This document shows, piece after piece, positions 1 to 12,190 of a DNA stretch of 38,060 nucleotides; within the stretch, counting starts at the first letter, position 1, and each line of letters starts with the position of its first letter. The translations under genes were made by a program, and so were the position numbers. The notes under the pieces are model-generated. The model was given only the letters and a program-made list of their open reading frames with translations. It had not been told where the DNA came from and did not search any database. The stretch is taken from assembly GCA_964492015.1 (NCBI GenBank), contig CAZBIH010000001.1, positions 1 to 38,060 of the forward strand, read 5' to 3'. This DNA comes from an uncultured Planctomycetia bacterium (GTDB lineage Bacteria; Omnitrophota; Gorgyraeia; 2-02-FULL-51-18).

Positions 1-40
1 TTTTCTGGGTAGTTTTCTGGGTAGTTTTCTGGGTAGTTTT
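1..40. repeat. 12-nt tandem repeat TTTTCTGGGTAG, 3.3 copies, running into the left window edge
   Basis: Direct reading of positions 1-40. The repeat is in frame on the minus strand (ACT ACC CAG AAA) and encodes a (TTQK)n linker in the partial gene above. Confidence 0.9.
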
Positions 41-523
41 TGCGTTCATCTGCCCAGCACGGAAAAAGGTTACTTGAAATCCCGTTTTGATACTCTCAAA
101 CTCCACCCGCACGCCCGCGGCATTGCATTCTTCCTTAATACGGCGCAAACCTGATCCCCAGCGCTCGATATCTTTAGCCAGATAGAAAGCTTCTGCGATC
201 AACGGGTTTCTGGGATAGCTTTTTCCACGACCTGCGATAAACTCAGCCGGATCATGGTCGAAAGGAAACTGGCCTGGATTATAAATTTCAATCCTATCCC
301 GGTAAATGGCGATCTCATTGCTTTTGGGATTATAAAAATCCCGGTGACACAAGGAATTGATGATAGCTTCCTTCATGGCGCACACAGGAATTTCAGGGAT
401 CTCAATCCTCGTATTTCCGGAAAGGTCGGCGCGCCAATCAATGTGCTCCTTGACATAGACTTCGCACTGTTGGATCAAATCGAAAAGTGGCCCTTTAAAA
501 CTTTGAATATCCACAAATGTCAC
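1..523 (-). CDS. C-terminal portion of an AlbA_2/HATPase_c_4-family 'ATP-binding' putative transcriptional regulator. The 3' end lies left of the window and the 5' half (AlbA_2/Schlafen-type domain) is absent, so this may be a gene remnant.
   Basis: Absent from the ORF track because no stop codon falls inside the window. My minus-strand translation is open from 583 to 1: ..VQAAVFAGKDKVTFVDIQSFKGPLFDLIQQ..IPVCAMKEAIINSLCHRDFYNPKSNEIAIYRDRIEIYNPGQFP..SYPRNPLIAEAFYLAKDIERWGSGLRRIKEECNAAGVRVEFESIKTGFQVTFFRA..(TTQK)n. The NSLCHRDF, RIEIYNPG, RNPLIAEAF and ERWGSGLRR blocks are hallmarks of the HATPase_c_4 domain. There is an in-frame TGA at 584-586. The first possible start is GTG at 523-521. Confidence 0.6.
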   Translation of the reverse strand, partial: MTFVDIQSFKGPLFDLIQQCEVYVKEHIDWRADLSGNTRIEIPEIPVCAMKEAIINSLCHRDFYNPKSNEIAIYRDRIEIYNPGQFPFDHDPAEFIAGRGKSYPRNPLIAEAFYLAKDIERWGSGLRRIKEECNAAGVRVEFESIKTGFQVTFFRAGQMNAKTTQKTTQKTTQK

Positions 524-624
524 TTTATCTTTTCCGGCAAAGACCGCCGCCTGAACTTCAACACTGCCGGTAGTCCAGATCTTTCAAGTATTTGGACTGT
601 CCTTAATGTCCGTTTTTAAATGAG

Positions 625-1899
625 TTACGGAGTTTTTTGACACGATAAAACAGCCGCCTGCGCGCCCAAAACAATTTCCGGGTTCGGTAGAGGGATAATA
701 AAGTCACCCTTAAAACCATTCTGTCTCAGCCTGGGCATTAATTCTGAGGCGATGTGCCAGGAAAAAATCAGGGCATAGTCCGGCTGCGTCTCATAAAGCC
801 CTTTCTCATCCAGAATCGGGATCATTTTTCCGGGAATATAATTGCCAATTTTATGCGAGCCTGAGATCTCGTAGACACAATCGAGCATCGTCTCGTCGAG
901 TCCTGTGTAATTAATCAGAGTGCTCGCGCGTGAAGGGGCGCTAATCCCGGCAATGCTCTTGCCCTGATTTTTTAAGTCCCGGAGCATCGCGATTAGATCC
1001 AGCTTGCTCTGGCCGACTTTCTTTCTGAAGTCATCCAAATATTCCTGCTTTAAAACCGTCTTTTTTTCCGCCTCCAAAATAGCGGAAACGCTGGATTGTA
1101 CCGGATAAAGGCCTTTGGCGGCCGCGTACACGCGAATAGAGCCTCCGTGAGTGGGTATTCCCCTGGCGTGAATTACCTCAAGGCCATGCCGTTCAAGGAG
1201 ATATTTAAGGCTATGAAGCGAATAATATCTCATGTGCTCATGGTAAATCGTGTCGTACTGCAGCGTGGCCAGAAGGTCTCCTAGGTAATGAGACTCCGAC
1301 ACAAACAATCCGTCCGGCGTCAGCAGTTGCTTGATCGATTCGATGATTCCGTGAATATCGTCCATATGAGCAAAGACGTTGGTCGCTGTCACTGTTTTGG
1401 CGTGCCCTTTTTCCTGCAATATTTTTTGAACCACAGAAGCATTGAAGTAGGAAATGATCGTGGGGATCCCTCGTTGGATGGCCAATTTGCCGATCTCTTC
1501 CGGGGTCACTCCCAGCACCTGATGATGGTCTTTGAAATTGCTGAGCAGGTTCCCGTCGTTGGAACCGATGTCCACGATCAAGTCCTTTTGGGCCATCGGA
1601 TAAAAGCGCTGGACCTCCAGATTCAATTCCGCAAAATTTTCACGCAAAATACGCGTGGTGCTGCTGGTATAGGGATACTCCGGAGGAAAAAGAACAGTGG
1701 CGTCCACGATCAGCCCCAGCTGAGCCAGAGAGCACGCCGGACAAACCAAGAGCTCCGCTGGAAACCCAAGCTCCTCACCGGCCGGCTGCCCGATCTTTCT
1801 CATTTTATTGACCGGCGGCAGGAAGCCCAGGAAAATAACCGATTTAAGATCTTTGGATCCACAGATCTGACACAAAGTAACCACGCGACTCATCGCCAT
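625..1899 (-). CDS. SAM-dependent NDP-sugar C-methyltransferase-like protein (TylC3/NovU-type architecture: Zn-ribbon, class I SAM fold, C-terminal C-methyltransferase domain)
   Basis: 424-aa ORF. It has an N-terminal CxxC...CxxC pair (CQICGS, CPACS), SAM motif I LIVDIGSNDGNLL, and the TNVFAHMDD and YDTIYHEHMRYYS blocks typical of this family. There is a 3-nt gap to the upstream gene. Confidence 0.75.
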   Translation of the reverse strand: MAMSRVVTLCQICGSKDLKSVIFLGFLPPVNKMRKIGQPAGEELGFPAELLVCPACSLAQLGLIVDATVLFPPEYPYTSSTTRILRENFAELNLEVQRFYPMAQKDLIVDIGSNDGNLLSNFKDHHQVLGVTPEEIGKLAIQRGIPTIISYFNASVVQKILQEKGHAKTVTATNVFAHMDDIHGIIESIKQLLTPDGLFVSESHYLGDLLATLQYDTIYHEHMRYYSLHSLKYLLERHGLEVIHARGIPTHGGSIRVYAAAKGLYPVQSSVSAILEAEKKTVLKQEYLDDFRKKVGQSKLDLIAMLRDLKNQGKSIAGISAPSRASTLINYTGLDETMLDCVYEISGSHKIGNYIPGKMIPILDEKGLYETQPDYALIFSWHIASELMPRLRQNGFKGDFIIPLPNPEIVLGAQAAVLSCQKTP

Positions 1900-1902
1900 A
1901 AC

Positions 1903-2883
1903 CTATGGATTCCTCTCATTTTTTAACGGCTCATGGTCGATATACCAAGGCACGGTTTTTTTAAGTCCCTCAACCAGCGAGTACTGTTCCCCAAATCCAA
2001 GACTTCGCAATTTTCCGGTATCAGGACACCGGCGCGAAGGACTCCCCTCCAGCAGCTTCCCTGGCACAATATTGAGCTCAAGTTTAAAAAAATGCGCGAT
2101 ATGCCTGGCTACATCGGCGATCGTAGTTTCTTGGGTGGTTCCGATATTATATATTCCCAGGGGCTCTCCTTTTTCCATGATCAGCATCAACCCGGCGACA
2201 AAATCATCAATAAAAGTGAATGAGCGGGTTTCCTCCCCACTGCCCTGGATGGGAAAATCAAGGGTCGTTCCAGCCGCTTTCGCCAGCTCCTTGAAACGCC
2301 TGACAAATTGAGGGATCACATGCTCCCAACCCATCTGAGGCCCATAAACGTTGTGCGGCCGAAAAATGATCACCCGGTCCATCTTTTTTTTGGCGCAGTG
2401 GATAGCCAGCATCTCACTGATGATTTTTCCGCCCCCATAAGAATACCGCGGATTCATGGGATCCGGAATGATCAGAGGGACATTTTCAGGTGTCGGATAA
2501 ACTGCGGGTACCTGGTAAACCTCAGAACTTGAGGCCAGGAAGAGCTCTCTTACGTTGTGCCGGGAACAGGCATCCAGAACATTCAGCATGCCTTTGACTC
2601 CCACCTCAAGGACCAGGTCAGGATGAGAATAAAAATATTCGGTCCCGTTGACGTAAGCCAGATGAACAACCCCGTTCATTCCCTGGGCGGAATCGATGAC
2701 CGCCTGCGAATCCCGGATGTCCGCGTGGACGATCTCGCAGTTCTTCTTGTTTGAAAAATCGTGCGTACCACGCGACGCGTTGTCCAAGATCCGGACGCTG
2801 TGCCCGAGCGCCAAAAGCCTGGTCACGACCGCAGCCCCAATAAAACCAAAACCTCCGGTAACCAAATATTTTTTAGGGCTCAT
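1903..2883 (-). CDS. NAD-dependent epimerase/dehydratase-family SDR (nucleotide-sugar 4-keto-forming dehydratase/decarboxylase or epimerase)
   Basis: The ORF track extends to 3009, but those 42 extra codons overlap the upstream GT2. The ATG at 2883 forms an ATGA overlap with that gene's stop and puts the Rossmann motif VTGGFGFIGAAV at the N-terminus. The catalytic signature is ASSSEVY ... YSYGGGK (S, YxxxK). Confidence 0.85.
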   Translation of the reverse strand: MSPKKYLVTGGFGFIGAAVVTRLLALGHSVRILDNASRGTHDFSNKKNCEIVHADIRDSQAVIDSAQGMNGVVHLAYVNGTEYFYSHPDLVLEVGVKGMLNVLDACSRHNVRELFLASSSEVYQVPAVYPTPENVPLIIPDPMNPRYSYGGGKIISEMLAIHCAKKKMDRVIIFRPHNVYGPQMGWEHVIPQFVRRFKELAKAAGTTLDFPIQGSGEETRSFTFIDDFVAGLMLIMEKGEPLGIYNIGTTQETTIADVARHIAHFFKLELNIVPGKLLEGSPSRRCPDTGKLRSLGFGEQYSLVEGLKKTVPWYIDHEPLKNERNP

Positions 2884-3683
2884 ACGTCCCCCGGATCGAT
2901 AGGAAAACCTTTGGGGACTCTGACGCGCACCGACAAATGATTGGCCGGACCTTTTTTTCTGAGTTCCCGGTAGCCCCAGAAAAACCATCTCAAATACTCT
3001 TTTGTCCACGAAGTGAGTTTAAAGGTGGATTTGCCGCCGTATAGACGGTCGATGGAAATGATGGGAACTTCTCCCAACTGCAAATTTTCCAGTTGGGCCT
3101 TGATGGCCATTTCAAAAGCAAACGCCCATCCCACGGGTTTGGCGTGAAACTGAAACCGGGGCCAGATGGATCTTCGGAATAATTTAATGCCCGTCGTCGC
3201 ATCCGACAACGCCGCTCCCGCCAGGAAACTAAAAAGAACATTGGCCAGGCGCGACAACGTACCGCCGATCCAGGAACCGCCCAGGCGCCTGCCCCCGTGC
3301 GCGTAACGCGTGCAACTGACCAGATCGCAGCCCTCTTCGATCAGCCCGATCATGTCTTCAATAGCCAGTACCGGCCCCACTTCATCGGCGGCAAAGATAA
3401 GAATAGCGTCACCCGCCGCGCGATCCACACCCGCCCTTAATGCGTTCAAAACTCCCACGCCCTTGTCGTTGTAAACGCTTCGCAATTCGGGGTACATTTT
3501 TTGAATGGCTTGAACCACGGGGACGCTGTCGTCATCGGGATGATCATAAATGACCAGGACTTCATGCGGAATTTCAACGACGGCTTTCAAAATTTTTAAT
3601 AAAATTTTAAGATTTACGCCTTCATTGCGCACCGGCAACAGGATCGATAATAGCCGGACCCGCTCAACCGCCGCCGTGGCCAT
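2880..3683 (-). CDS. GT2 glycosyltransferase, DPM1/polyprenyl-phosphate-sugar-synthase-like
   Basis: 267 aa. Motifs are LSILLPVRNEG, VIYDHPDDDS and ILIFAADEV (DxD-like), plus a C-terminal amphipathic WFFWGYRELRK. There is a 1-nt gap to the upstream DegT stop. Confidence 0.8.
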   Translation of the reverse strand: MATAAVERVRLLSILLPVRNEGVNLKILLKILKAVVEIPHEVLVIYDHPDDDSVPVVQAIQKMYPELRSVYNDKGVGVLNALRAGVDRAAGDAILIFAADEVGPVLAIEDMIGLIEEGCDLVSCTRYAHGGRRLGGSWIGGTLSRLANVLFSFLAGAALSDATTGIKLFRRSIWPRFQFHAKPVGWAFAFEMAIKAQLENLQLGEVPIISIDRLYGGKSTFKLTSWTKEYLRWFFWGYRELRKKGPANHLSVRVRVPKGFPIDPGDV

Positions 3684-3684
3684 T

Positions 3685-4779
3685 TTATTTTAAAAATCCT
3701 TTGATCGCCGAACAGACTTCGAGAATATTCTCGTCGGACAACGTAAATGCCGACGGCAGCCAAAACGCTTTTGGCATCAACTGGGTGCTTACCGGAAATG
3801 TATCGTCCGCGGCCAGATAAGGTTTTTGCCGATGCAGCGGGTGCCAGAACTTGCGGTAGCCGATCCCCTTGCCCGACAAATACTCACACAAAGGATCCCG
3901 CGCCTCCGAAAGCGCGTCGGTCCATTGCGGAATTTCACCCCCCGCCAAGTCAAAGGGCATTATTTTTATTCCCTTCAAACCCTGCAACTCTGAAGCGTAG
4001 ATCTCATAGATCCTTTTTTGTCTGTGGGTACGGGTTTTAAGCTCGGCAAGCTGGGCCAGTCCTATGGCGGCCTGAACATTGGTCAATTTTAAATTAAATC
4101 CGATCGAGCTATGAACATCGTCGCCGCCTGTCCCTCGCGCGGGCCGTCCCTGGTCCTTGATCTCTCGCAGGCGCACATGCAGCCGCTCATTGTTGGTGAC
4201 CACCATCCCCCCCTGTCCGGTCATCACCGTCTTGTTGGGAGAAAAAGAAAAACAACCCGCGTCTCCAAAAGACCCCAGGAATTTTCCCACGGATCTGGAC
4301 AAAAGAGCCTCGGCGGCATCCTCCACGACCCACAGGCTGTGTTCTTTGGCGAATTGTAAAATCGCTTTCATATCGGCGGACCGGCCGCTCACATGAACGG
4401 GCACGATGGCTTTCGTTTTTGGGGTTAATTTTTTCTTTATGGCGTCGAGCAAAATATTAAAAGTTTCAGGATCCACATCCACCAACACCGGCTTAGCTCC
4501 CGCCAGGATGACCGCATTGGCGGTGGCCGCAAATGTGACATCGGGGACTAAAACTTCATCGCCGGATCCAACCCCCAGCGCCGCAAGTGCCGCAAAGATA
4601 GCTGTCGTGCCGCTGGTCACCGCGACCGCGTACCGGACTCCCAAAAGACCGGCTATTTCTTTTTCAAATCGCTCCGTGTATTCCCCGTCATTGAGAAAAC
4701 CGGTCTTCAATACCTCCTGCACGAGGCCGGACTCCTCTCCGGTGACCTTGGGTTCCCACCAAACAATGCGGTCACGCAC
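3685..4779 (-). CDS. DegT/DnrJ/EryC1/StrS-family PLP-dependent sugar aminotransferase
   Basis: Motifs AVTSGTTAIFAAL, VVEDAAEAL and FSFSPNKTVMTGQGG (Schiff-base Lys). The ORF-track start at 4794 is TTG. The GTG at 4779 gives an 8-nt GTGCGTGA overlap with the upstream stop, a pattern repeated elsewhere in the cluster. Confidence 0.9.
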   Translation of the reverse strand: MRDRIVWWEPKVTGEESGLVQEVLKTGFLNDGEYTERFEKEIAGLLGVRYAVAVTSGTTAIFAALAALGVGSGDEVLVPDVTFAATANAVILAGAKPVLVDVDPETFNILLDAIKKKLTPKTKAIVPVHVSGRSADMKAILQFAKEHSLWVVEDAAEALLSRSVGKFLGSFGDAGCFSFSPNKTVMTGQGGMVVTNNERLHVRLREIKDQGRPARGTGGDDVHSSIGFNLKLTNVQAAIGLAQLAELKTRTHRQKRIYEIYASELQGLKGIKIMPFDLAGGEIPQWTDALSEARDPLCEYLSGKGIGYRKFWHPLHRQKPYLAADDTFPVSTQLMPKAFWLPSAFTLSDENILEVCSAIKGFLK

Positions 4780-5311
4780 GGGCAGGCCTCGCAAAAAATT
4801 CGTCCAGTGCTTTCACTTGGGATAAGACATTTTTTTTATTCCTGGGCTTTATCAGTTTGATCGGCGTTCCGGCATAAACAGACCATGGCCGGAAAGAAAA
4901 ATGGGCCGGCACAAAACTCAGCGCCCCGATCACCGTGCCTTCCGGGATGAGGTTGTCCGGCATCACGACGGAGTTGGCGCCCACCGCGCAATAATCGCCG
5001 ATCGTCACATCCCCGGTGATCGTAGTCGTTTTAAACGGCTTGATCCCCTCAGGCAGGATCACGGCGACATCATTGACAAAATCGTTGCTCGCGCACCAGA
5101 TCCTGACGCCGGCGGACAAACTGCAGTATTTACCCAGGCGAAAATGAAAGCGTTTTCCGCCCGCCACCGAGCAGCCGGTCGCGATGTGAGACCCTTTTCC
5201 GAGGATCACCTGCGTCGAAAAATAACAATAATCATCCACGATCACTCCGGGGGAAACGAGGAAGTGGCCGCGGTGACGGATCCTGATATTGGGCGAAAGA
5301 ATGGGCTTCAT
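4772..5311 (-). CDS. Left-handed beta-helix (hexapeptide-repeat) sugar acyl/acetyltransferase
   Basis: 179 aa with imperfect hexapeptide repeats (GKGSHIATGCSVAGG, VTIGDYCAVGANSVVMPD, IPEGTVIGALSFV). It starts directly after the upstream stop. N- versus O-acyl specificity cannot be told from sequence. Confidence 0.8.
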   Translation of the reverse strand: MKPILSPNIRIRHRGHFLVSPGVIVDDYCYFSTQVILGKGSHIATGCSVAGGKRFHFRLGKYCSLSAGVRIWCASNDFVNDVAVILPEGIKPFKTTTITGDVTIGDYCAVGANSVVMPDNLIPEGTVIGALSFVPAHFSFRPWSVYAGTPIKLIKPRNKKNVLSQVKALDEFFARPARA

Positions 5312-6505
5312 TTATTTGGGTAAAAAATTCCATATATCAATCACAGGCTTCTTGGTTTTTATTTTTTTATACGCCGCGTGCGGCACGCATAAGATCAGCA
5401 GGTCGCTTTGCTTGAGCGTTTGTTCCAAAGAGGTCAGATCCGGGTCCGTATTCACAAAAGGGTCGCTCGTCAACACCGCCTTGGATTGAAACTGCAGCAG
5501 TCTTTTAAGTTTATAGCTTAAAGAATCCCGGGTGTCGTCGATGTCCGCTTTAAAAGCCATCCCCAGAAGGCCGATGGTCATCCCGGCCAAATCGTATTTG
5601 GGCAGCAGATGGTCCACGATAAACTGCGGGAAACCCTCGTTGATCAGCATCGCGGCGTGTCCCAGGCTAAATTGGTTCCTGAAAAAAGCGGCCAATTGCA
5701 TCGTGTCCTTCAAAAGACACGGCCCGGCCGCCAATCCCGCGCCCGGGACATCTTTAGCCCGCGGATAATCTTTTTTCAATCCTTTCAGGACGTTGTAATA
5801 ATCCACGCCGGCGGATTTGGCGATCATGTAAAACTGGTTGGCGATCGCAAAATTGATGTACCGGTAGGCATTGCTGAATAATTTGGCGAACTCCGCTTCC
5901 ATGGGCTTTAAGCTGACGATGTCCGGCGTCAGTGTTTTGAAAAGCTTGGCCGCGGCCTTAGTCGACGCCGCATCGATACCGCTGACGATCTGAGGAATGG
6001 TGCTCAGTTCCTTGATCGCATACCCCTGGACGATCCTTTCCGGACAAAAAGAGATCTTGAGCCGCTTGCCTTTCGAACGCAGGTACTTGTCCAGCCACTG
6101 CGTCATGCCGGGATAAACGGTGGACCGCAACACCAAAAGCTGCCGGCTTGACAAATAAGGGAGCAGCGAATCCAAACAGCTTTGAATGTCCTGAAGGCAG
6201 GGATTCATGAATCGGTCTACGGGCGTTCCGATCGTGATGATCACCGAGTCGGCGTTGGCGATCTGTTCCGGAGAAGCGGTATAAGAAATTCGTCCGGATT
6301 TGAGGACTTCCTTCAGGATCGGCTCGGCCCCATATTCCATAAACGGCATCTCGCCCGCCTGGATCTGCCGCATCGCCTTCTCATTTTTATCGTAAATTAA
6401 AACGTCAAGGCCCCGATGAGCGAACATCAAAGAAAGCGGAAAGCCCACGTGGCCGGCGCCGCCAACAACGGCCAGATCGTAACGTTTTGATTTTTTGGCT
6501 TTCAT
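5312..6505 (-). CDS. Nucleotide-sugar dehydrogenase (UDP-glucose/GDP-mannose dehydrogenase family)
   Basis: 397 aa. It has an N-terminal NAD fold (DLAVVGGAGHVGFPLS), the catalytic Cys context GPCLLKD, and a C-terminal GMAFKADIDDTRDS nucleotide-sugar-binding block. ATGA overlap with the upstream Nudix stop. Confidence 0.85.
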   Translation of the reverse strand: MKAKKSKRYDLAVVGGAGHVGFPLSLMFAHRGLDVLIYDKNEKAMRQIQAGEMPFMEYGAEPILKEVLKSGRISYTASPEQIANADSVIITIGTPVDRFMNPCLQDIQSCLDSLLPYLSSRQLLVLRSTVYPGMTQWLDKYLRSKGKRLKISFCPERIVQGYAIKELSTIPQIVSGIDAASTKAAAKLFKTLTPDIVSLKPMEAEFAKLFSNAYRYINFAIANQFYMIAKSAGVDYYNVLKGLKKDYPRAKDVPGAGLAAGPCLLKDTMQLAAFFRNQFSLGHAAMLINEGFPQFIVDHLLPKYDLAGMTIGLLGMAFKADIDDTRDSLSYKLKRLLQFQSKAVLTSDPFVNTDPDLTSLEQTLKQSDLLILCVPHAAYKKIKTKKPVIDIWNFLPK

Positions 6506-7044
6506 ATCATCTCCTTTGACGGTATACGCCCGGACACAAGCGCCAGCGCCAGCAAAGAGACGTGCAGCGCGCTTGAAAATTCGCCGGTCTTTAGTTTCTG
6601 AGCCAGGTCCTTTTTAGAGCATAAACACATTTTTAAAGATTCCGCGAGATCGACGCCTCTGCCGGTCGGGACAGCACCGGCTGCGAAATAACAATGCATG
6701 CGGTTACCCAGCCTGCCGGTGTCCGGATACAAAACTCCCAGAAGTTCCATGCGGGGCGCTTCATAACCGGTTTCCTCGCGCAATTCCCGGACCGCCGCTT
6801 TTTCGGGAGACTCATTTAAATCCACGTGCCCGCTGGGAAATTCCAGCGTGACCTGCTCCACGGCGGGACGATACTGTTTCACTAAAATAATGTCTTGCTC
6901 TGTGGTTACCGCAAGAACCGCGACATAATCGGAGGTTTGAACGACATAGTATGGGTCCTGCGGACTGTCCGCGTACTGTTTGGCGATAAGCGACATCCAT
7001 CTGGATTCAAATACGGGCTCGGCAGTCAAAAGTTTATTTTTCAT
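6502..7044 (-). CDS. Nudix hydrolase (nucleoside-diphosphate-sugar pyrophosphatase-like)
   Basis: Nudix box GHVDLNESPEKAAVRELREETGYEA. The ORF-track start at 7143 is TTG and overlaps the upstream gene. The ATG at 7044 gives an ATGA overlap. Confidence 0.85.
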   Translation of the reverse strand: MKNKLLTAEPVFESRWMSLIAKQYADSPQDPYYVVQTSDYVAVLAVTTEQDIILVKQYRPAVEQVTLEFPSGHVDLNESPEKAAVRELREETGYEAPRMELLGVLYPDTGRLGNRMHCYFAAGAVPTGRGVDLAESLKMCLCSKKDLAQKLKTGEFSSALHVSLLALALVSGRIPSKEMI

Positions 7045-8339
7045 GCTATTTGGGGCCTTATTCGCTTTTGGATCAATTGATAAGTCATATACAGGCAAAT
7101 AGCCGAAAAAAGCAGCCTCGACAACCCGATCACCTTGCCCCAAGGCAGATACCGCGCCAGAATTTCGTGCAAACTCGGAAATTGATTAGCTCTTTCCAGC
7201 ATCAAAGGAGTAAAAAGCCCGAGATTTTGGCCTCTCGAATCCAAATTAAATAAAAATAATAAAAAGATCAAAGCCACGGAAAGCCAGGAGGGCCAAGGCG
7301 GCTTCCCGGCTGCCAAATAAATGTAAAACGGAAGCGTCCACATGAAATAATGCACCGAAACCATCGTCGTCGCGTAAACTGTCAACAGGAGGGCACACCA
7401 GACATTGGCGACAAGGGGAAGTGTGCTGCTCTCCTTTCTTGGAGATGTTTGTTTTTGCAATAAAATCACACTAACCCATAAAAAGACCATTCCTAAAATC
7501 AATTTTCCTACAACAGCCGAAAGAAGCGGAAAACTTAAAAAAATCCCTTTTAAGGCCTGACCTGAATAGGCGGGGCCCCAGTAAGCGTACACAGCATAAC
7601 CTTTTGAGTGCACATAGAGCGGCAAGAAAACTAGGATAAACGGGAGAATACATAATAGGGTATATTTCCAGCGGTCCCTCCACGTATCCCCCATCGCCAG
7701 AACAAAAGGCACAAGAAGCATAAAAGCAAAATTTTCTAACAATAAAATAGCTCCAAACGCCAGGCATGCGAGAGTTTTCCTGTCTTTCAGCAACGCGTAA
7801 ATTAGGGCCCACTCAAAAAAAGCCGTGTAAATGCGGTACTGGCCAAAAATATAGGTTGAATACAAGGCAACCGGATGAAAAAGCCAAAATAAAACCAGAA
7901 AGTTCCTCACTTTGGGCGAATCTGAAATGCGCCAGATCAACGCAAAGCAAAGAGCGTCGACGATCAGGTAAGGGAGCTTCATAAAAAAAACAAACCGCAA
8001 CCTTTCAACCAGTGAAAAAATTGACAAGTCAAAAGCGGTGGTAAGGGGGCTTAGATGATCCGTCAGAGAGGCGAGCTCCGGACATACGGGCAGAAAAACA
8101 AACTGTGAAAAAGCGGTCAGATACCCCACCAGCGGAGGATAATGGATAAAGCCATGCAAAGCCAGATCTTTAGCGAAGTAAGCGTACAGATCAAGTGTGT
8201 GCCTGGAATAAATGGCCGAAGGCAGGACGTTAATAAAATAAATGTCGCCCTGCAGCGCAATCGGCATCAGGAGCAACCGGATGGCCAACCCCACAACTCC
8301 TGCAATGATCATGGCTTGCCAGCCTTTAAAAATAGCCAT
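7041..8339 (-). CDS. Polytopic membrane protein, probable GT-C-fold glycosyltransferase (DUF2029/GT87-like)
   Basis: 432 aa, with more than 10 hydrophobic segments. An acidic residue sits in the first loop (ALQGDIYF), and HYPPLVGYL resembles the YPPL loop of lipid-carrier-dependent GT-C enzymes. The ATG at 8339 is preceded by GAGG. The function call is by resemblance only. Confidence 0.6.
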   Translation of the reverse strand: MAIFKGWQAMIIAGVVGLAIRLLLMPIALQGDIYFINVLPSAIYSRHTLDLYAYFAKDLALHGFIHYPPLVGYLTAFSQFVFLPVCPELASLTDHLSPLTTAFDLSIFSLVERLRFVFFMKLPYLIVDALCFALIWRISDSPKVRNFLVLFWLFHPVALYSTYIFGQYRIYTAFFEWALIYALLKDRKTLACLAFGAILLLENFAFMLLVPFVLAMGDTWRDRWKYTLLCILPFILVFLPLYVHSKGYAVYAYWGPAYSGQALKGIFLSFPLLSAVVGKLILGMVFLWVSVILLQKQTSPRKESSTLPLVANVWCALLLTVYATTMVSVHYFMWTLPFYIYLAAGKPPWPSWLSVALIFLLFLFNLDSRGQNLGLFTPLMLERANQFPSLHEILARYLPWGKVIGLSRLLFSAICLYMTYQLIQKRIRPQIA

Positions 8340-8393
8340 TGGCCTCGATCTGGGACAACATCAGATTTTCAGGTTTTGGCATAAGAGCCTTGG

Positions 8394-8422
8394 ATTTTAT
8401 CAGCCTGTTTAACGGGTGTCAA
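8394..8422 (-). promoter_or_regulatory. Sigma70-type promoter candidate: TTGACA - 17 nt - TAAAAT
   Basis: The minus strand reads TTGACA (8422-8417), a 17-nt spacer, then TAAAAT (8399-8394). It lies in the 88-nt gap between the ABC-exporter stop (8428) and the ATG at 8339. Confidence 0.5.
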
Positions 8423-8427
8423 CGCAT

Positions 8428-10131
8428 TCACGGGACTCGGGGCGATCCTATAATTTCGGGGCGGCTTTGTTCGTCCATCGAGTAAACAATGTCCGCGTTT
8501 TCTAGCAGAGACGAGCGGTGCGAAACCAGAAGGATATTGACCTTGCCTCTCAGGCGCTGGATCAGCGAACGGACCACTTCCTCGGACGCGGTATCCAAAG
8601 CGCTGGTAGGTTCATCCAGGATCAAAAGCTTGGGACCGCGCAGAAGCGCCCTGGCGAATACCAGCCTTTGGCGCTGGCCCCCCGACAGGTTGAGCCCGCG
8701 GTTGCCGATCACGGTCGCGTAACCCTGAGGCTGTGCCAGGATAAACTCATGAGCGTCCGTCTGACAGCAGGCCGCCTCCAGACGCTCCCGTGATACCTCC
8801 GGGTTTCCCAGCCGTAAATTGTCTTCAATGCTCATGTCATACAAGATCGATTCCTGGGACACATAGGCGACGCTGTCCCTCCAGGAAAATAGGTCAATCC
8901 CGGCCGCATCGATCCCATTGATCAGCACTTTTCCGCAGGTGGGATGGTTCAATCCCACGATCAGATCTAAAAGCGTCGTTTTTCCTGAGCCCGACCTTCC
9001 GCTGATCACCACCAGCTTGTTTTTTTCAATTTTCAAATTTACATCCCTCAAGACTTCCCCGCTACCCGGATAGGTAAAACCCACGCGGACCAGCTCCAGC
9101 GTTTCAAAACCTGAGACTTTCACGGCTCCCGGCAAAACACGCGCTTGGGATGCTTCCAGAATGAACTGGCGGCAAATAAAATAGGAAGGCAGATTCACTA
9201 CTAAGCGCTGACGGCTCGTCTGGATCTCCATGCCTTTACGGCCGAGACGATAAATAATCATTGATAGGAGTAGGCCGCCTTCAGCCGCGACACCAAAAAA
9301 CTGGCGGCTGACCACTAAAAACAGGCAGACAAAAGCCACCGCCAAAACTTCGGGAAACGTCTCGATGACCGCCCCATAGTTGTAACGCTTAAACATTTTT
9401 TTGCCCAGGCGGTCGTACCCGGTGCGGATGCGCTCCAGCCGGTAAGGCTCCAAATGATTGGCTTTTAGGAATTTGACCGCCACAAGATCCTCAAAGATCT
9501 CTCCATGCAGAGAGCTTTGCATGGAGGCGATCTCGGAAGACACAGCCTTGGACCGGACGATCATCCGCTTCACCGCTAAAAAAGAAACCAGGCCGATGAA
9601 TAGACTGGGGACAAAAGACTGGAACGAGATCAGAAAGCCTAAAGACAAATAGACCAGGATGTTCAGCGATTCGCCCAGAAACTGGATCAGGAGCCGGAAA
9701 GCATTGCCGGCCATCACGGAGTGTTCTCCCACCAGCGACATCAAAAATCCGGATTTCTGGGAAGACGCAAATCTCCATTCGGAATCAAGAAAGTCAGAAA
9801 CGACTTTCTTTTTGATCCCGATCTCAAAATCCACCGCGATCTTTTCAACGAATCTTTTGGCGGTGTAAGAAAAAAGGCTCTTGAGCGAAAAAACAGCGAG
9901 GATAAATCCCGTAAGGACCCAAATGTTCCCGTTCTTCAAAAAATCCGGCATCCAGGCGGTCAAAAGGCCCCCGTCCGGGATCTGCTTGGAGAACAGCCCC
10001 GACAAAAGCGGCAGCACCGCCGAAAATCCGACGCCCTCCAGGACCCCCGCGCTTAAAACGCACAATATCGCGATGTTCGCGCGGACCGGATAGTCCCGGT
10101 AAACGTCCGAGATAAAATCCCGCAGATGCAT
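8428..10131 (-). CDS. Fused TMD-NBD ABC exporter (MsbA/PglK-type, candidate lipid-linked glycan flippase)
   Basis: Six-helix TMD followed by Walker A GRSGSGKTT, signature LSGGQRQR, Walker B LLILDEPTS and an H-loop (VSHR). The ORF-track N-terminal 127 residues overlap the upstream gene and are non-membrane junk. The ATG at 10131 (MHLRDFISDVY) lies 7 nt after the upstream stop. Confidence 0.9.
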   Translation of the reverse strand: MHLRDFISDVYRDYPVRANIAILCVLSAGVLEGVGFSAVLPLLSGLFSKQIPDGGLLTAWMPDFLKNGNIWVLTGFILAVFSLKSLFSYTAKRFVEKIAVDFEIGIKKKVVSDFLDSEWRFASSQKSGFLMSLVGEHSVMAGNAFRLLIQFLGESLNILVYLSLGFLISFQSFVPSLFIGLVSFLAVKRMIVRSKAVSSEIASMQSSLHGEIFEDLVAVKFLKANHLEPYRLERIRTGYDRLGKKMFKRYNYGAVIETFPEVLAVAFVCLFLVVSRQFFGVAAEGGLLLSMIIYRLGRKGMEIQTSRQRLVVNLPSYFICRQFILEASQARVLPGAVKVSGFETLELVRVGFTYPGSGEVLRDVNLKIEKNKLVVISGRSGSGKTTLLDLIVGLNHPTCGKVLINGIDAAGIDLFSWRDSVAYVSQESILYDMSIEDNLRLGNPEVSRERLEAACCQTDAHEFILAQPQGYATVIGNRGLNLSGGQRQRLVFARALLRGPKLLILDEPTSALDTASEEVVRSLIQRLRGKVNILLVSHRSSLLENADIVYSMDEQSRPEIIGSPRVP

Positions 10132-10138
10132 GTCCGGT

Positions 10139-10834
10139 TTATTTATTTTTTGCGGCACGGGCATAGTCCACATTGGCGTCCAAGAATTCCTTTTCATACT
10201 GCAACCACTTGTCTCCGTACGGGTGATCCTTATAATTCTCAAACCAGGGCCCGCCCTCCGTGTAATGAATAAGCTTGGTATAAGCGTCATAATGGTCGAG
10301 CACATTCCAAGTGTTGGGAATATCACCCACTTGCTCATCGGGGATCGGTTCAAAACGGTGAAGCCATTTGGGCGGCATCGTTTCCACGGCCTCCCGGGAC
10401 CAAACCGTAAGCTTCTCGCAATTAAGCAGCATGAAGCTAGACCAGTTTTTCCGCGGGTAAGACGTCTGGACTTTTCCGTCCATCTTGATCGTATTGGTGG
10501 GCCGTTGGTCATGCTTGACGACCCGGAGCGCGTACGGTTTCATATCCAGCTCAAAAACTTCGTTGAGATCCGCCAGGCAAAGCATGTCGCAATCCATAAA
10601 AATGGCCGTGCCCTTATAACCGCAGAGCAGTGGAGTCAAAAAACGGGTGTACGTGAACTCCGTGGACTGCAAAGGATCCTGTGTCCTGCGAAAACCGGGC
10701 TTGACCGCGAGCTCACTCAACTTCAGAGGAATGATCTCCATTGGTTTTTTTGCGTGCTTTTCGATCGAATACTTCAATACCTGATACGCGATATCCTCCC
10801 GACTGTCATACCCGACAAATACTTTATTTTTCAT
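10139..10834 (-). CDS. GT8-like (retaining, GT-A fold) glycosyltransferase
   Basis: 231 aa. It has the N-terminal VFVGYDSRED strand, STEFTYTRFLTP and the DxD motif FMDCDML. The family call is by resemblance. Confidence 0.6.
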   Translation of the reverse strand: MKNKVFVGYDSREDIAYQVLKYSIEKHAKKPMEIIPLKLSELAVKPGFRRTQDPLQSTEFTYTRFLTPLLCGYKGTAIFMDCDMLCLADLNEVFELDMKPYALRVVKHDQRPTNTIKMDGKVQTSYPRKNWSSFMLLNCEKLTVWSREAVETMPPKWLHRFEPIPDEQVGDIPNTWNVLDHYDAYTKLIHYTEGGPWFENYKDHPYGDKWLQYEKEFLDANVDYARAAKNK

Positions 10835-10852
10835 CCTAGGCCCTTTCTGGGT

Positions 10853-12190
10853 TCATTCCCTTTGAAGTGACGAAACAAGCTTGGTGTAGGTCGACAAGAC
10901 ATCTACCGGCTCCCCGCCGGCATAAATTGAATTTCTGATCAGATCCGCATTGTCATAAAGCGCGGAAGGCGGCTCTTTGAGACGCGCACGTTCCACGCCT
11001 GCCAGAAGCTGCTCCAGATCATGGCACTCGATCCCCGCGCCGCTATCTTCAAAGATCGTTCTTCCGCGGTGCAGATACGTGGGATTGATCAATGTCTTGC
11101 CCTGCAGGATCACCTCAAATCCGATACTGGAGCGTACATTAACTGCGGCGTCACACCAGCGAATCAGCGCCACCGAATCCACGATCTCCTGACGGGTCGC
11201 TTTTTTTCCCGGAACCAGTGAAGACAGCCACCGTTTAAAAGACACCGCGCGCGAGGCGTTGATAAGCTCAACATTGGCTTGAGAGGATAATCGGGTACGC
11301 AGATCCATCGGCAGATCGCCCGCGCCTTCGCGTGTATGCTCTTTGATCACCAAATAGATTCGATCATCAGACGCCAGCGACTTGAGCGCCAACAGAACCC
11401 CCTCTTTGTCCACGGTCTTTTCCCAGCGCGGAAGAAAAAATAGAAGCTTTAGCCGGCCCCCCTCGCTTTTCGACGGCTTAAAATCCGGCCAGAAATTCTT
11501 GGCGATCGAGAACCATTCCGGGCAGTAACGGGCGCTACCCAAAAAAACGATTTTTTTCTGTTCTATGAGTTTTTTGTCCCATGGCCCGAAATGATGGCGC
11601 GGATTAGGCTCCACAATGGCGTCAAAAATATTTCTGACCGCAAAATATTCTTCACCTCCCGTTGCCTGAAATTGCTCAGACCCTTCTCCGTGGGATGTGA
11701 GAAAGTGCGCGCCGTGAGGAAGACAGACCAAGGGCACCCTCCGATCTTTACAAGCAGTGACCAGTTTTCCTTCCAAGGTTTCCATTGAAATTTCACCGGG
11801 GCCAAAAGGGTCAAAAATACACACCGCCGGCCGGCGTGACTCGATAAATTTTTCTGCCCATCGCAAATTGAATACAGACTGATCTAAAAAGCTCAGCACT
11901 GTCCTTATTATTATTTTTACCAATGGGTTCACAAACCGCGCCAAAGAAAATTCTCTCAAAAAACCAAGCCCTGGCGCGGAGCCATAATAATAATACATCC
12001 GGCACCGGGAAAACTGCCTCAAAAGAACCAGCCTTGGATCCCGCCGGTAATCCAGCACCTGATTTTTGTCGATTAAAATAACATCCACTTGACGGCCTTC
12101 ACGCAAAAACCTCCAAGCGACGGGGCTCAAATGATCCGTGTCATTGTAAACGCGAAAAAAAATACAAACAGTCCCTGAGGTGTTACGCAT
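10853..12190 (-). CDS. Divergent GT-B-like transferase, TagF/Glyphos_transf-like motif order (paralogue B); function unknown
   Basis: Its motif series parallels the neighbouring paralogue: FLGSARYCPEW, KLLFFLPRWEK, LVIKEHTRE and CDAAVNVRSSIGFEVILQGKTLINP. The ATG at 12190 gives an 8-nt ATGCGTAA overlap. An alternative ATG at 12238 would give a 56-nt overlap. Confidence 0.5.
   Translation of the reverse strand: MRNTSGTVCIFFRVYNDTDHLSPVAWRFLREGRQVDVILIDKNQVLDYRRDPRLVLLRQFSRCRMYYYYGSAPGLGFLREFSLARFVNPLVKIIIRTVLSFLDQSVFNLRWAEKFIESRRPAVCIFDPFGPGEISMETLEGKLVTACKDRRVPLVCLPHGAHFLTSHGEGSEQFQATGGEEYFAVRNIFDAIVEPNPRHHFGPWDKKLIEQKKIVFLGSARYCPEWFSIAKNFWPDFKPSKSEGGRLKLLFFLPRWEKTVDKEGVLLALKSLASDDRIYLVIKEHTREGAGDLPMDLRTRLSSQANVELINASRAVSFKRWLSSLVPGKKATRQEIVDSVALIRWCDAAVNVRSSIGFEVILQGKTLINPTYLHRGRTIFEDSGAGIECHDLEQLLAGVERARLKEPPSALYDNADLIRNSIYAGGEPVDVLSTYTKLVSSLQRE

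Follow-up and report, generated by a model that had tools for sequence, protein, structure and literature searches.

What sugar does a compact block of eight genes in a bacterial surface-glycan cluster make, and where is that sugar delivered? The question is raised by the window analyzed here, i.e., a whole contig of 38,060 bp (CAZBIH010000001.1) from the 1.84-Mb, ~80% complete metagenome-assembled genome of an uncultured Planctomycetia bacterium, which is placed in the Omnitrophota by GTDB (GCA_964492015.1). Open reading frame (ORF) calling revealed eight intact ORFs at positions 625-8339, all on the minus strand. An original prediction, made from the DNA letters, had read them as a module following the logic of the Arn pathway for the decoration of lipid A with aminoarabinose. 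The domains it had named were confirmed by Pfam and NCBIfam or, for the last protein, by fold (Table 1): a nucleoside-diphosphate (NDP)-sugar 6-dehydrogenase, a short-chain dehydrogenase/reductase (SDR), a C-methyltransferase, a DegT aminotransferase, a hexapeptide acyltransferase, a family 2 glycosyltransferase (GT2), a Nudix hydrolase, and a polytopic glycosyltransferase of fold C (GT-C). The logic of the block is Arn-like, but it is not an Arn system; it is the acylamido variant of a widespread, uncharacterized cassette. With a probability of roughly 0.55, its product is a methyl-branched, N-acylated amino sugar that would be built from a sugar acid, loaded onto a carrier, and attached outside the cytoplasm. 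A branched acylamino sugar traveling on a lipid carrier had also been proposed originally, and the comparisons discussed below support it as a reading, with a predicted lipid-carrier step.

In the proposed route, the dehydrogenase would oxidize C6 of an NDP-hexose to yield the uronic acid, and the SDR would oxidize C4 and decarboxylate the product in the manner of UXS and the C-terminal domain of ArnA, releasing an NDP-4-keto-pentose. The methyltransferase, which is of the TylC3/MtmC type, would then methylate a carbon adjoining the keto group, most likely C3, whereupon the DegT enzyme would transaminate C4 and the AntD-like hexapeptide enzyme would N-acylate the new amine. Subsequently, the helix-less GT2, which resembles DPM1 and ArnC, would move the finished sugar onto polyprenyl phosphate and, after flipping, the GT-C protein would pass it to an extracytoplasmic acceptor. 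A likely acceptor is the glycan specified by the rest of the 38-kb cluster, where a legionaminic-acid pathway is encoded as well. Judged from family chemistry and comparative genomics, the five sugar-building steps from oxidation through N-acylation are, taken jointly, probable.

The assignment of the C-methyltransferase to the TylC3/NovU type held. The whole protein aligned with solved C-methyltransferases in a PDB search, namely MtmC (2e-63), TcaB9 (6e-55), and 5t64, a sugar 3-C-methyltransferase (1e-49). All three of its Pfam domains exceed their cut-offs, and the Cys4 zinc site (C-x2-C...C-x2-C), the S-adenosylmethionine (SAM) motif DIGSNDG, and YHEH are kept. In a tree that contained no NovU reference, the C-methyltransferases of the module formed a clade (100/100) nested with MtmC and TcaB9. 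These two are its closest characterized homologues and act on NDP-4-keto sugars, not on the non-sugar substrates that would have spoken against the original proposal. The window enzyme is thus predicted to be a sugar C-methyltransferase of the TylC3/MtmC/TcaB9 family with an NDP-4-keto sugar as the substrate. With TylC3, MtmC, TcaB9, and KijD1, it has the three-domain architecture, the Cys4 zinc site, the SAM motif, and the YxEH catalytic motif in common. Whereas those enzymes work in antibiotic deoxysugar pathways together with a 4,6-dehydratase, the window enzyme is encoded in a surface-glycan cluster with a dehydrogenase and a decarboxylase-type SDR. Because of these partners, its substrate is predicted to be a 4-keto-pentose rather than a 4-keto-6-deoxyhexose.

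Further copies of this gene were encountered. The organism's own genome contains two partial C-methyltransferase paralogues at contig ends (C37:11644-12270 and C132:2-655, with 38% and 33% identity), which may be the halves of one gene divided by the assembly; the piece on C37 is followed by genes for an aminotransferase, SDRs, and a reductase. A gammaproteobacterial locus (L012) contains two paralogues 3.5 kb apart (5130-6380 and 9956-11227), which are 34% and 60% identical to the window enzyme, and the more distant copy is located immediately upstream of the GT2 gene.

A scan of 185,579 species genomes for the C-methyltransferase yielded 58 loci, 16 of which encode orthologues with 46-63% identity. 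They were found in Nitrospina, Flammeovirgaceae, three lineages of Patescibacteria, Gammaproteobacteria, Elusimicrobiota, Spirochaetales, Pelagibacteraceae, Prochlorococcus, and a cultured strain of Eilatimonas, E. milleporae DSM 25217 (L019). Five loci were added from the window's own order, where ~6 of 39 genomes contain an orthologue, giving 21 loci from about eight phyla. An SDR orthologue (45-57% identity) is encoded in 19 of these loci, usually directly beside the C-methyltransferase; of the two remaining contigs, one ends at the methyltransferase gene and the other is 3.2 kb long. Most of the 21 loci also encode the dehydrogenase and the GT2, often along with the Nudix hydrolase, and a Nitrospina locus (L005) combines seven of the eight functions on a single strand. 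Recurrence of the block, which the original prediction had put forward as a check, therefore holds for this core, but the GT-C gene of the window does not travel with the module in most other genomes. No account of this cassette turned up in a literature search for links of sugar C-methyltransferases to Arn, branched aminopentoses, or UDP-glucuronate decarboxylases.

The part of the cassette that differs between loci is the C4 step. The aminotransferase is combined with a formyltransferase in L009, L014, and L018, and with a hexapeptide enzyme, which is not orthologous among the loci, in the window, L005, L016, and L030. The slot is filled by an RmlD-like reductase in L006, L007, L008, L010, and L017, and by a GFO/IDH/MocA oxidoreductase in L075 and L076 of the same order, while L074, L077, and L078 have an equal-sized gap at this place. 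Aminotransferase orthologues with 44-58% identity are present in the amino-variant loci. Such swapping is expected if the dehydrogenase, the SDR, and the methyltransferase together produce a common methylated 4-keto intermediate, which would then be either aminated and acylated or reduced, and passed to a donor-specific GT2. The identity of the GT2s to that of the window is 40-60% in the amino loci and 28-38% in the reductase and other loci; hence, the GT2 subtype tracks the C4 substituent predicted for the sugar.

A locus of a member of the Pelagibacteraceae (SAR11; L030:3800-11230) contains both C4 branches and two GT2s around one set of dehydrogenase, SDR, and C-methyltransferase. One branch consists of an aminotransferase, a hexapeptide enzyme, and a GT2, and the other of an RmlD-like reductase and a second GT2, which suggests that two sugars are made from one intermediate.

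The SDR had been likened to UXS and the C-domain of ArnA, and its motifs agree with this proposal. In a PDB search, its nearest solved relatives were 8vr2 and human UXS1 (~29% identity); identity to the C-domain of ArnA is 24%. The segment ASSSEVYQ aligns with ASTSEVYG in UXS1 and STSEVYG in ArnA, the YxxxK motif in YSYGGGK aligns with YDEGK and YSVSK, respectively, and RRCPD aligns with KRKPD and HRKPS. The Arg in the latter segment is the equivalent of R619 in ArnA and R277 in human UXS1, a residue required for decarboxylation. The complete signature of S/T-S-E, YxxxK, and Arg is kept in all 14 module SDRs that were aligned, whereas the Arg is missing in RmlB, Gmd, GalE, and the window's own LegB-like dehydratase. 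The possibility that the SDR is a simple 4-epimerase was ruled out by the Glu of S/T-S-E and the conserved Arg.

The entry 8vr2, in which T-S-E and the Arg are likewise found, is one of three consecutive PDB entries named by family (8vr2, 8vr3, and 8vr5) that are top matches of the SDR (8vr2) and of the aminotransferase (8vr3 and 8vr5). They may stem from one characterized pathway, potentially the closest experimental relative of the module; a search of the literature on these three entries found no relevant paper.

The pairing of a C-methyltransferase with a decarboxylase is not confined to this cassette. A distant clade of C-methyltransferases (27-38% identity), from freshwater Actinomycetota and Rhodospirillaceae/Alphaproteobacteria, also adjoins SDR genes (L023, L025, L026, L029, L041, L042, L054, and L059). 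In the tree, the SDRs of L023, L026, L041, and L054 were grouped with human UXS1 within the true UXS clade (97/93); for the other four, UXS1 is the best-matching reference. As this distant clade adjoins SDRs of the UXS clade, the pairing appears to occur twice, independently.

The dehydrogenase had been given the role of Ugd. It is a 6-dehydrogenase with the catalytic Cys in AAGPCLLKD, but it does not belong to the Ugd clade and is 25% identical to E. coli Ugd. UDP-N-acetylmannosamine dehydrogenases gave the top scores in pairwise searches. In the tree, the module dehydrogenases form a cassette-specific clade (100/100), which groups with CalS8 (97/96), the TDP-glucose dehydrogenase of the calicheamicin aminodideoxypentose route, and stands apart from WecC/Cap5O and Ugd. 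This route (CalS8/CalS9/CalS13) leads from a hexose via the uronate and the 4-keto-pentose to a 4-amino-pentose, with CalS9 as the decarboxylase and CalS13 as the aminotransferase. Unlike the window module, it belongs to actinomycete secondary metabolism, ends in GT-B transfer to an aglycone, and includes neither C-methylation nor a lipid carrier. In the window, the dehydrogenase is similarly predicted to supply the uronic acid to the decarboxylating SDR.

A second sugar cluster is located elsewhere in the organism's genome (contig C3:16700-22600). Its dehydrogenase falls in the Ugd/3vtf clade and its SDR in the UXS1 clade; a reductase resembling RmlD and a nucleotidyltransferase resembling RmlA, the latter 46% identical to E. 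coli RfbA, are encoded as well. This cluster looks like a conventional UDP-xylose-type or deoxysugar route, distinct from the window module.

The aminotransferase, with the pyridoxal-phosphate (PLP) lysine within FSFSPNK, fits the role of ArnB that it had been given and is predicted to act at C4. It belongs to the DegT family and is 35% identical to E. coli ArnB (4.5e-48, 167 bits), with GDP-perosamine synthase scoring higher (1e-67, 232 bits) and WbpE lower (1e-41, 146 bits) among its PDB matches. The acyltransferase has AntD (3vbp/3vbi/3vbn) as its nearest solved relative in a PDB search, although the similarity is modest (E 1e-18, ~70 bits). The entry 3vbn is AntD (PMC6031040). AntD, from the anthrose pathway, is an N-acyltransferase of a 4-amino-4,6-dideoxy sugar. 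As the original prediction had it, the hexapeptide enzyme stands in the place of the formyltransferase of Arn: it fills the slot that is occupied in sister loci by the formyltransferase or by PglD-like hexapeptide enzymes. No orthologue of the window acyltransferase was found in the other module loci. A 3-C-methyl, 4-acylamino surface sugar exists in Mycobacterium kansasii, i.e., N-acylkansosamine. Both anthrose and N-acylkansosamine are 6-deoxyhexoses made via 4,6-dehydratases, whereas the window route is predicted to proceed via a decarboxylase.

The presence of a 6-dehydrogenase, a DegT aminotransferase, and a hexapeptide acyltransferase, together with the match to WbpE, is also reminiscent of the WbpA/WbpE/WbpD-type route to a diacetamido uronic acid. 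That the block encodes such a route is highly improbable. Among the matches of the aminotransferase, perosamine synthase and ArnB, both C4 enzymes, score far above WbpE, and the acyltransferase is nearest to AntD, with no recognizable WbpD or WlbB among its 38 listed PDB matches. The dehydrogenase groups with CalS8, in a tree without WbpA or WbpO. Moreover, the block contains no WbpB-type 3-dehydrogenase of the GFO/IDH/MocA family, and the conserved pair of SDR and C-methyltransferase would be left unexplained.

As to the position of the methyl group, C3 is favored, since all solved relatives of the methyltransferase are C3 enzymes. Perhaps C5 of the 4-keto-pentose is methylated instead, in a NovU-like reaction that would lead to a 4-acylamino-4,6-dideoxyhexose without any 4,6-dehydratase. 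Like C3, C5 lies alpha to the C4 keto group, and the established UXS/ArnA mechanism of decarboxylation includes a C4-C5 enolate. NovU, another member of the methyltransferase family, methylates C5, and perosamine synthase, AntD, and the RmlD-like enzymes, the nearest solved relatives of the aminotransferase, the acyltransferase, and the branch reductases, respectively, all act on 6-deoxyhexoses. However, the module clade is nested with the solved C3-methyltransferases MtmC, TcaB9, and 5t64, and such a way of making common sugars would be costly and roundabout. Methylation at C5 is therefore considered improbable.

For the delivery of the sugar, the original prediction had relied on the GT2 and the membrane protein. 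The GT2 finds its best PDB matches in the Pyrococcus dolichyl-phosphate-mannose synthase (DPMS), ArnC, and the GtrB-like sll0501, which agrees with its classification as DPM1/ArnC-like; the loading of polyprenyl phosphate is a prediction from these relatives. In NCBIfam, it scores best with the ArnC model, although 42 bits are far under the cut-off of 529; identity to ArnC is 28% over the catalytic domain. It lacks the C-terminal transmembrane helices of ArnC and has AADE, of the form xAD(D/E), in place of DAD. The membrane protein has no Pfam or NCBIfam match, PMT_2 included. Its AlphaFold2 (AF2) model (pLDDT 80.5, pTM 0.86) was compared with the PDB using Foldseek, and the 16 best matches are all GT-C proteins, among them PIG-U, GPI mannosyltransferase I (TM-scores 0.57-0.59), ALG6 (TMq 0.63), ALG9, STT3, and Emb. 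In its family, which comprises 534 cluster representatives at E <= 1e-30, D32 immediately past the first transmembrane helix is nearly invariant, in keeping with the conserved acidic residue that GT-C enzymes have in their first extracytoplasmic loop, and some members weakly match the GT87, PIG-M, and PIG-U Pfam models. The modeled fold thus suggests a GT87/PIG-M/ALG6-like GT-C protein and a candidate extracytoplasmic transferase; the proposed GT-C nature stood, but the protein is not ArnT-like. A natural fusion of a DPM1/ArnC-like GT2 domain, 25% identical to the GT2 of the window, with a C-terminal domain that belongs to the window GT-C family (P0047, 673 aa) links the functions of GT2 and GT-C.

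Several observations weigh against the route as a whole. With respect to the sugar, the 14 module SDRs form a clade of their own (100/100) outside the UXS and ArnA clades, in a polytomy among UXS/ArnA, RmlB/GalE, and Gmd, so that the functional call follows from motifs and gene context. The best NCBIfam scores of the SDR are for LegB and dTDP-glucose 4,6-dehydratase, far under the cut-offs, i.e., the scores for 4,6-dehydratases equal the best of any, and T/S-S-E is also present in GDP-mannose 4,6-dehydratase (S-T-S-E in E. coli Gmd). Thus, the SDR could be an NDP-hexose 4,6-dehydratase with a GMD-like T/S-S-E. The block would then yield a 4-acylamino-4,6-dideoxy-3-C-methyl-hexose resembling kansosamine, and the dehydrogenase would be needed for a different sugar of the cluster. 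In line with such a function, no dehydrogenase is encoded within 10 kb in two loci from the Candidate Phyla Radiation (CPR), L007 and L010. Yet, the decarboxylase Arg is present in every module SDR and missing in the known dehydratases listed above, the best PDB matches are UXS1 and 8vr2, and the cassette-specific dehydrogenase clade accompanies the SDR in overlapping or abutting operons. Even CPR genomes of 0.8-1.3 Mb retain a sister-type dehydrogenase elsewhere: the two with dehydrogenase-less loci have a copy with 38-39% identity, and all genomes whose locus has no dehydrogenase or one of the 32-36% type encode at least one homologue (E <= 1e-10). A dehydratase function is therefore quite unlikely, and the decarboxylating SDR is retained as the preferred reading. 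Furthermore, the dehydrogenase tree, besides the missing Wbp enzymes, had few references, and the C2 substituent and the nucleotide can only be inferred. Finally, that the Nudix hydrolase controls or cleans the NDP-sugar pool is a guess from its family and from the repeated occurrence of its gene next to that of the dehydrogenase. Its best NCBIfam matches, NudE and YffH/AdpP, are both under the cut-off, the PDB search put ADP-ribose pyrophosphatases, NudF, and NUDT5 first, and its Nudix box GHVDLNESPEKAAVRELREETGY is intact. An orthologue adjoins the module dehydrogenase in L006, L017, and L074-L076 and is found elsewhere within the module in L005 and L013.

The remaining counterpoints concern the delivery. 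The similarity of the GT2 to DPMS and ArnC is weak (E ~1e-10), and the canonical DAD and membrane helices are absent. In most other genomes, GT-C proteins of the window type are not linked to the module and are found in other glycan contexts: their gene neighbors there are PMT_2, MBOAT, or 2-epimerase genes, and no module methyltransferase, SDR, or dehydrogenase is seen in these loci. The membrane proteins that adjoin the module elsewhere are not related to the window GT-C; when those of L005, L006, L009, and L014 were compared with it, that of L006 alone gave a weak match (hhalign probability 63%) and the others none. In the same-order relatives L075 and L076, a PMT_2-type GT-C follows the GT2 directly after the module, and in L075 a window-type GT-C is located 2.7 kb further. 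No GtrA- or ArnE/F-type flippase was found in the window, and no ArnE/F homologue in the genome. The window contains several further GT2/GT-C pairs besides that of the block, and no ORF of 80-200 aa with at least three hydrophobic helices is present anywhere in positions 1-38060; hence, these pairs have no GtrA- or ArnE/F-type flippase nearby. Because of the modest GT2 similarity, the missing flippase, the other contexts of the GT-C, the unrelated membrane neighbors, and the PMT_2-type GT-C in same-order relatives, the lipid-carrier and GT-C steps are inferred with less strength than the five sugar-building steps.

The same observations are compatible with an NDP-sugar made as proposed, which the GT2 would add directly to an undecaprenyl-diphosphate-linked glycan, while the GT-C protein would serve another branch of the supercluster. 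This arrangement is not likely but deserves some consideration. Against it stand the finding that the best relatives of the GT2, both in structure and in hidden Markov model searches, are all polyprenyl-phosphate glycosyltransferases, and the fusion protein P0047. In addition, a polytopic membrane protein adjoins the module in every locus checked (window, L005, L006, L009, L012, L013, L014, L016, L018, and L030), L075 and L076 have their PMT_2-type GT-C at this place, and in the window the first gene of the operon, that of the GT-C, shares an ATGA overlap with the Nudix gene. Transfer via a lipid carrier to an extracytoplasmic acceptor is thus still preferred.

How far, then, does the comparison with Arn extend? 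The order of the chemistry is the same: a 6-dehydrogenase, a decarboxylase, a DegT enzyme acting at C4, N-acylation, an ArnC-like GT2, and a GT-C, as predicted here. The analogy is strengthened by L009, L014, and L018, where a formyltransferase is predicted to carry out the N-acylation, as in Arn. In contrast, the parts differ. The window dehydrogenase is of the CalS8-like clade rather than Ugd, the SDR belongs to a separate clade and is not fused to a formyltransferase as in ArnA, the hexapeptide enzyme replaces the N-terminal formyltransferase domain of ArnA, the GT2 is devoid of the transmembrane helices of ArnC, and the GT-C is GT87/PIG-M/ALG6-like, whereas ArnT is a PMT_2-type member of GT83. 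A C-methyltransferase and a Nudix hydrolase are added. Since no homologue of ArnD was found in any module locus or in the organism's own genome, the acyl group is predicted to stay on permanently. ArnT-like genes are located elsewhere in the genome. The genome encodes BamA, LpxA, LpxB, and LpxD, which implies a diderm with lipid A, but nothing points to lipid A as the acceptor. Like GtrA/GtrB/GtrC and CsbB/GtcA/YfhO, the block is predicted to use a DPM1-like GT2 to load polyprenyl phosphate and a GT-C for transfer; unlike these systems, it has no GtrA flippase and no transmembrane helices in the GT2, and a six-enzyme sugar pathway is encoded in the same operon. Thus, the cassette combines features of Arn, of the CalS8/CalS9 aminopentose route, of antibiotic branched-sugar methylation, and of three-component glycosylation of the Gtr type.

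The layout of the block (Table 1) agrees with the original description of eight genes behind a promoter. All junctions overlap or abut, and the Nudix gene has ATGA start/stop overlaps with both its neighbors, the GT-C gene (7044-7041) and the dehydrogenase gene (6505-6502), in line with the predicted coupling. The longest ORF of the SDR reaches position 3009, and homology backs the ATG at 2886 as the start. With 11 of 12 matches, the promoter candidate is the best site within positions 1-9000; the number of promoter-like sites in these first 9 kb is not above that in shuffled sequence. It sits directly past the stop codon of the upstream gene for a fused ABC exporter, the sole transporter adjoining the block. 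From this gene order, the eight genes may well form one operon, specifying first a nucleotide-sugar pathway and then delivery via a lipid carrier.

Table 1. Features of the eight-gene block and its immediate upstream neighbor (positions in the 38,060-bp window).
Feature	Position	Strand	Assignment
C-methyltransferase	625-1899	-	Methyltransf_13 + Methyltransf_23 + Methyltransf_14
Extended SDR	1903-2886	-	PF01370; predicted NDP-hexuronate 4-oxidase/decarboxylase
GT2, DPM1/ArnC-like	2880-3683	-	PF00535; predicted polyprenyl-phosphate sugar synthase
DegT/DnrJ/EryC1 PLP aminotransferase	3685-4794	-	PF01041 at 1.4e-103; predicted C4 aminotransferase
Hexapeptide (left-handed beta-helix) acyltransferase	4772-5311	-	PF00132; predicted 4-amino N-acyltransferase
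NDP-sugar 6-dehydrogenase	5312-6505	-	Three UDPG_MGDP_dh domains; TIGR03026, 264 bits, above cut-off
Nudix hydrolase	6502-7044	-	PF00293 at 3.7e-16; ADP-ribose/NDP-sugar pyrophosphatase group
Polytopic membrane protein, 432 aa	7041-8339	-	GT-C by fold; candidate extracytoplasmic polyprenyl-phosphate-sugar transferase
Sigma-70-like promoter candidate	8394-8422	-	TTGACA-17 nt-TAAAAT, TG before -10; consensus match
Fused ABC exporter	8428-10512		

The remainder of the contig is one large surface-glycan cluster, which includes the legionaminic-acid-type pathway, HisH/HisF-like amidotransferases, the ABC exporter, PMT_2 and YfhO GT-C proteins, MBOAT/AlgX-like proteins, and more GT2s. The organism's order is one of small genomes (1-2.7 Mb). 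The nearest relatives of the dehydrogenase are from the same order (58-62% identity), and those of the aminotransferase and the GT2 are from Nitrospina and Levyibacteriota (52-60%), which suggests a mosaic origin of the operon. The region of the GT-C gene (7001-8000) has a G+C content of 0.44, compared with 0.50-0.54 nearby, and a strong AT skew; this could reflect the codon content of a membrane protein or separate acquisition.

To our knowledge, C-methyl branched sugars are known almost exclusively from antibiotics and a few pathogen glycolipids. The cassette pairs a C-methyltransferase with a decarboxylase-type SDR across about eight phyla, including SAR11, Prochlorococcus, Nitrospina, and Patescibacteria, with an interchangeable C4 branch, i.e., formamido, acylamido, or hydroxyl. 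If the proposed route is correct, this would amount to a new family of monosaccharides in bacterial surface glycans. In abundant marine bacteria, it would also offer a mechanistic handle on how surfaces vary between strains, which matters for recognition by phages and grazers, and it would provide a clean set of soluble enzymes for the chemoenzymatic synthesis of branched aminopentoses. Arn-like logic, i.e., uronate formation, decarboxylation, amination, acylation, a lipid carrier, and a GT-C, would then be a general template that can be filled with non-orthologous parts and in which ArnD and ArnE/F are dispensable. Should C5 be methylated after all, the cassette would represent a SAM-dependent route to 6-deoxyhexoses and 4-amino-4,6-dideoxyhexoses without a 4,6-dehydratase in SAR11, Prochlorococcus, CPR bacteria, and others. 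In the less radical version, the cassette would stand for 3-C-methyl pentoses and aminopentoses that form a widespread, as yet undescribed family and are displayed on the surfaces of bacteria ranking among the most abundant on Earth.

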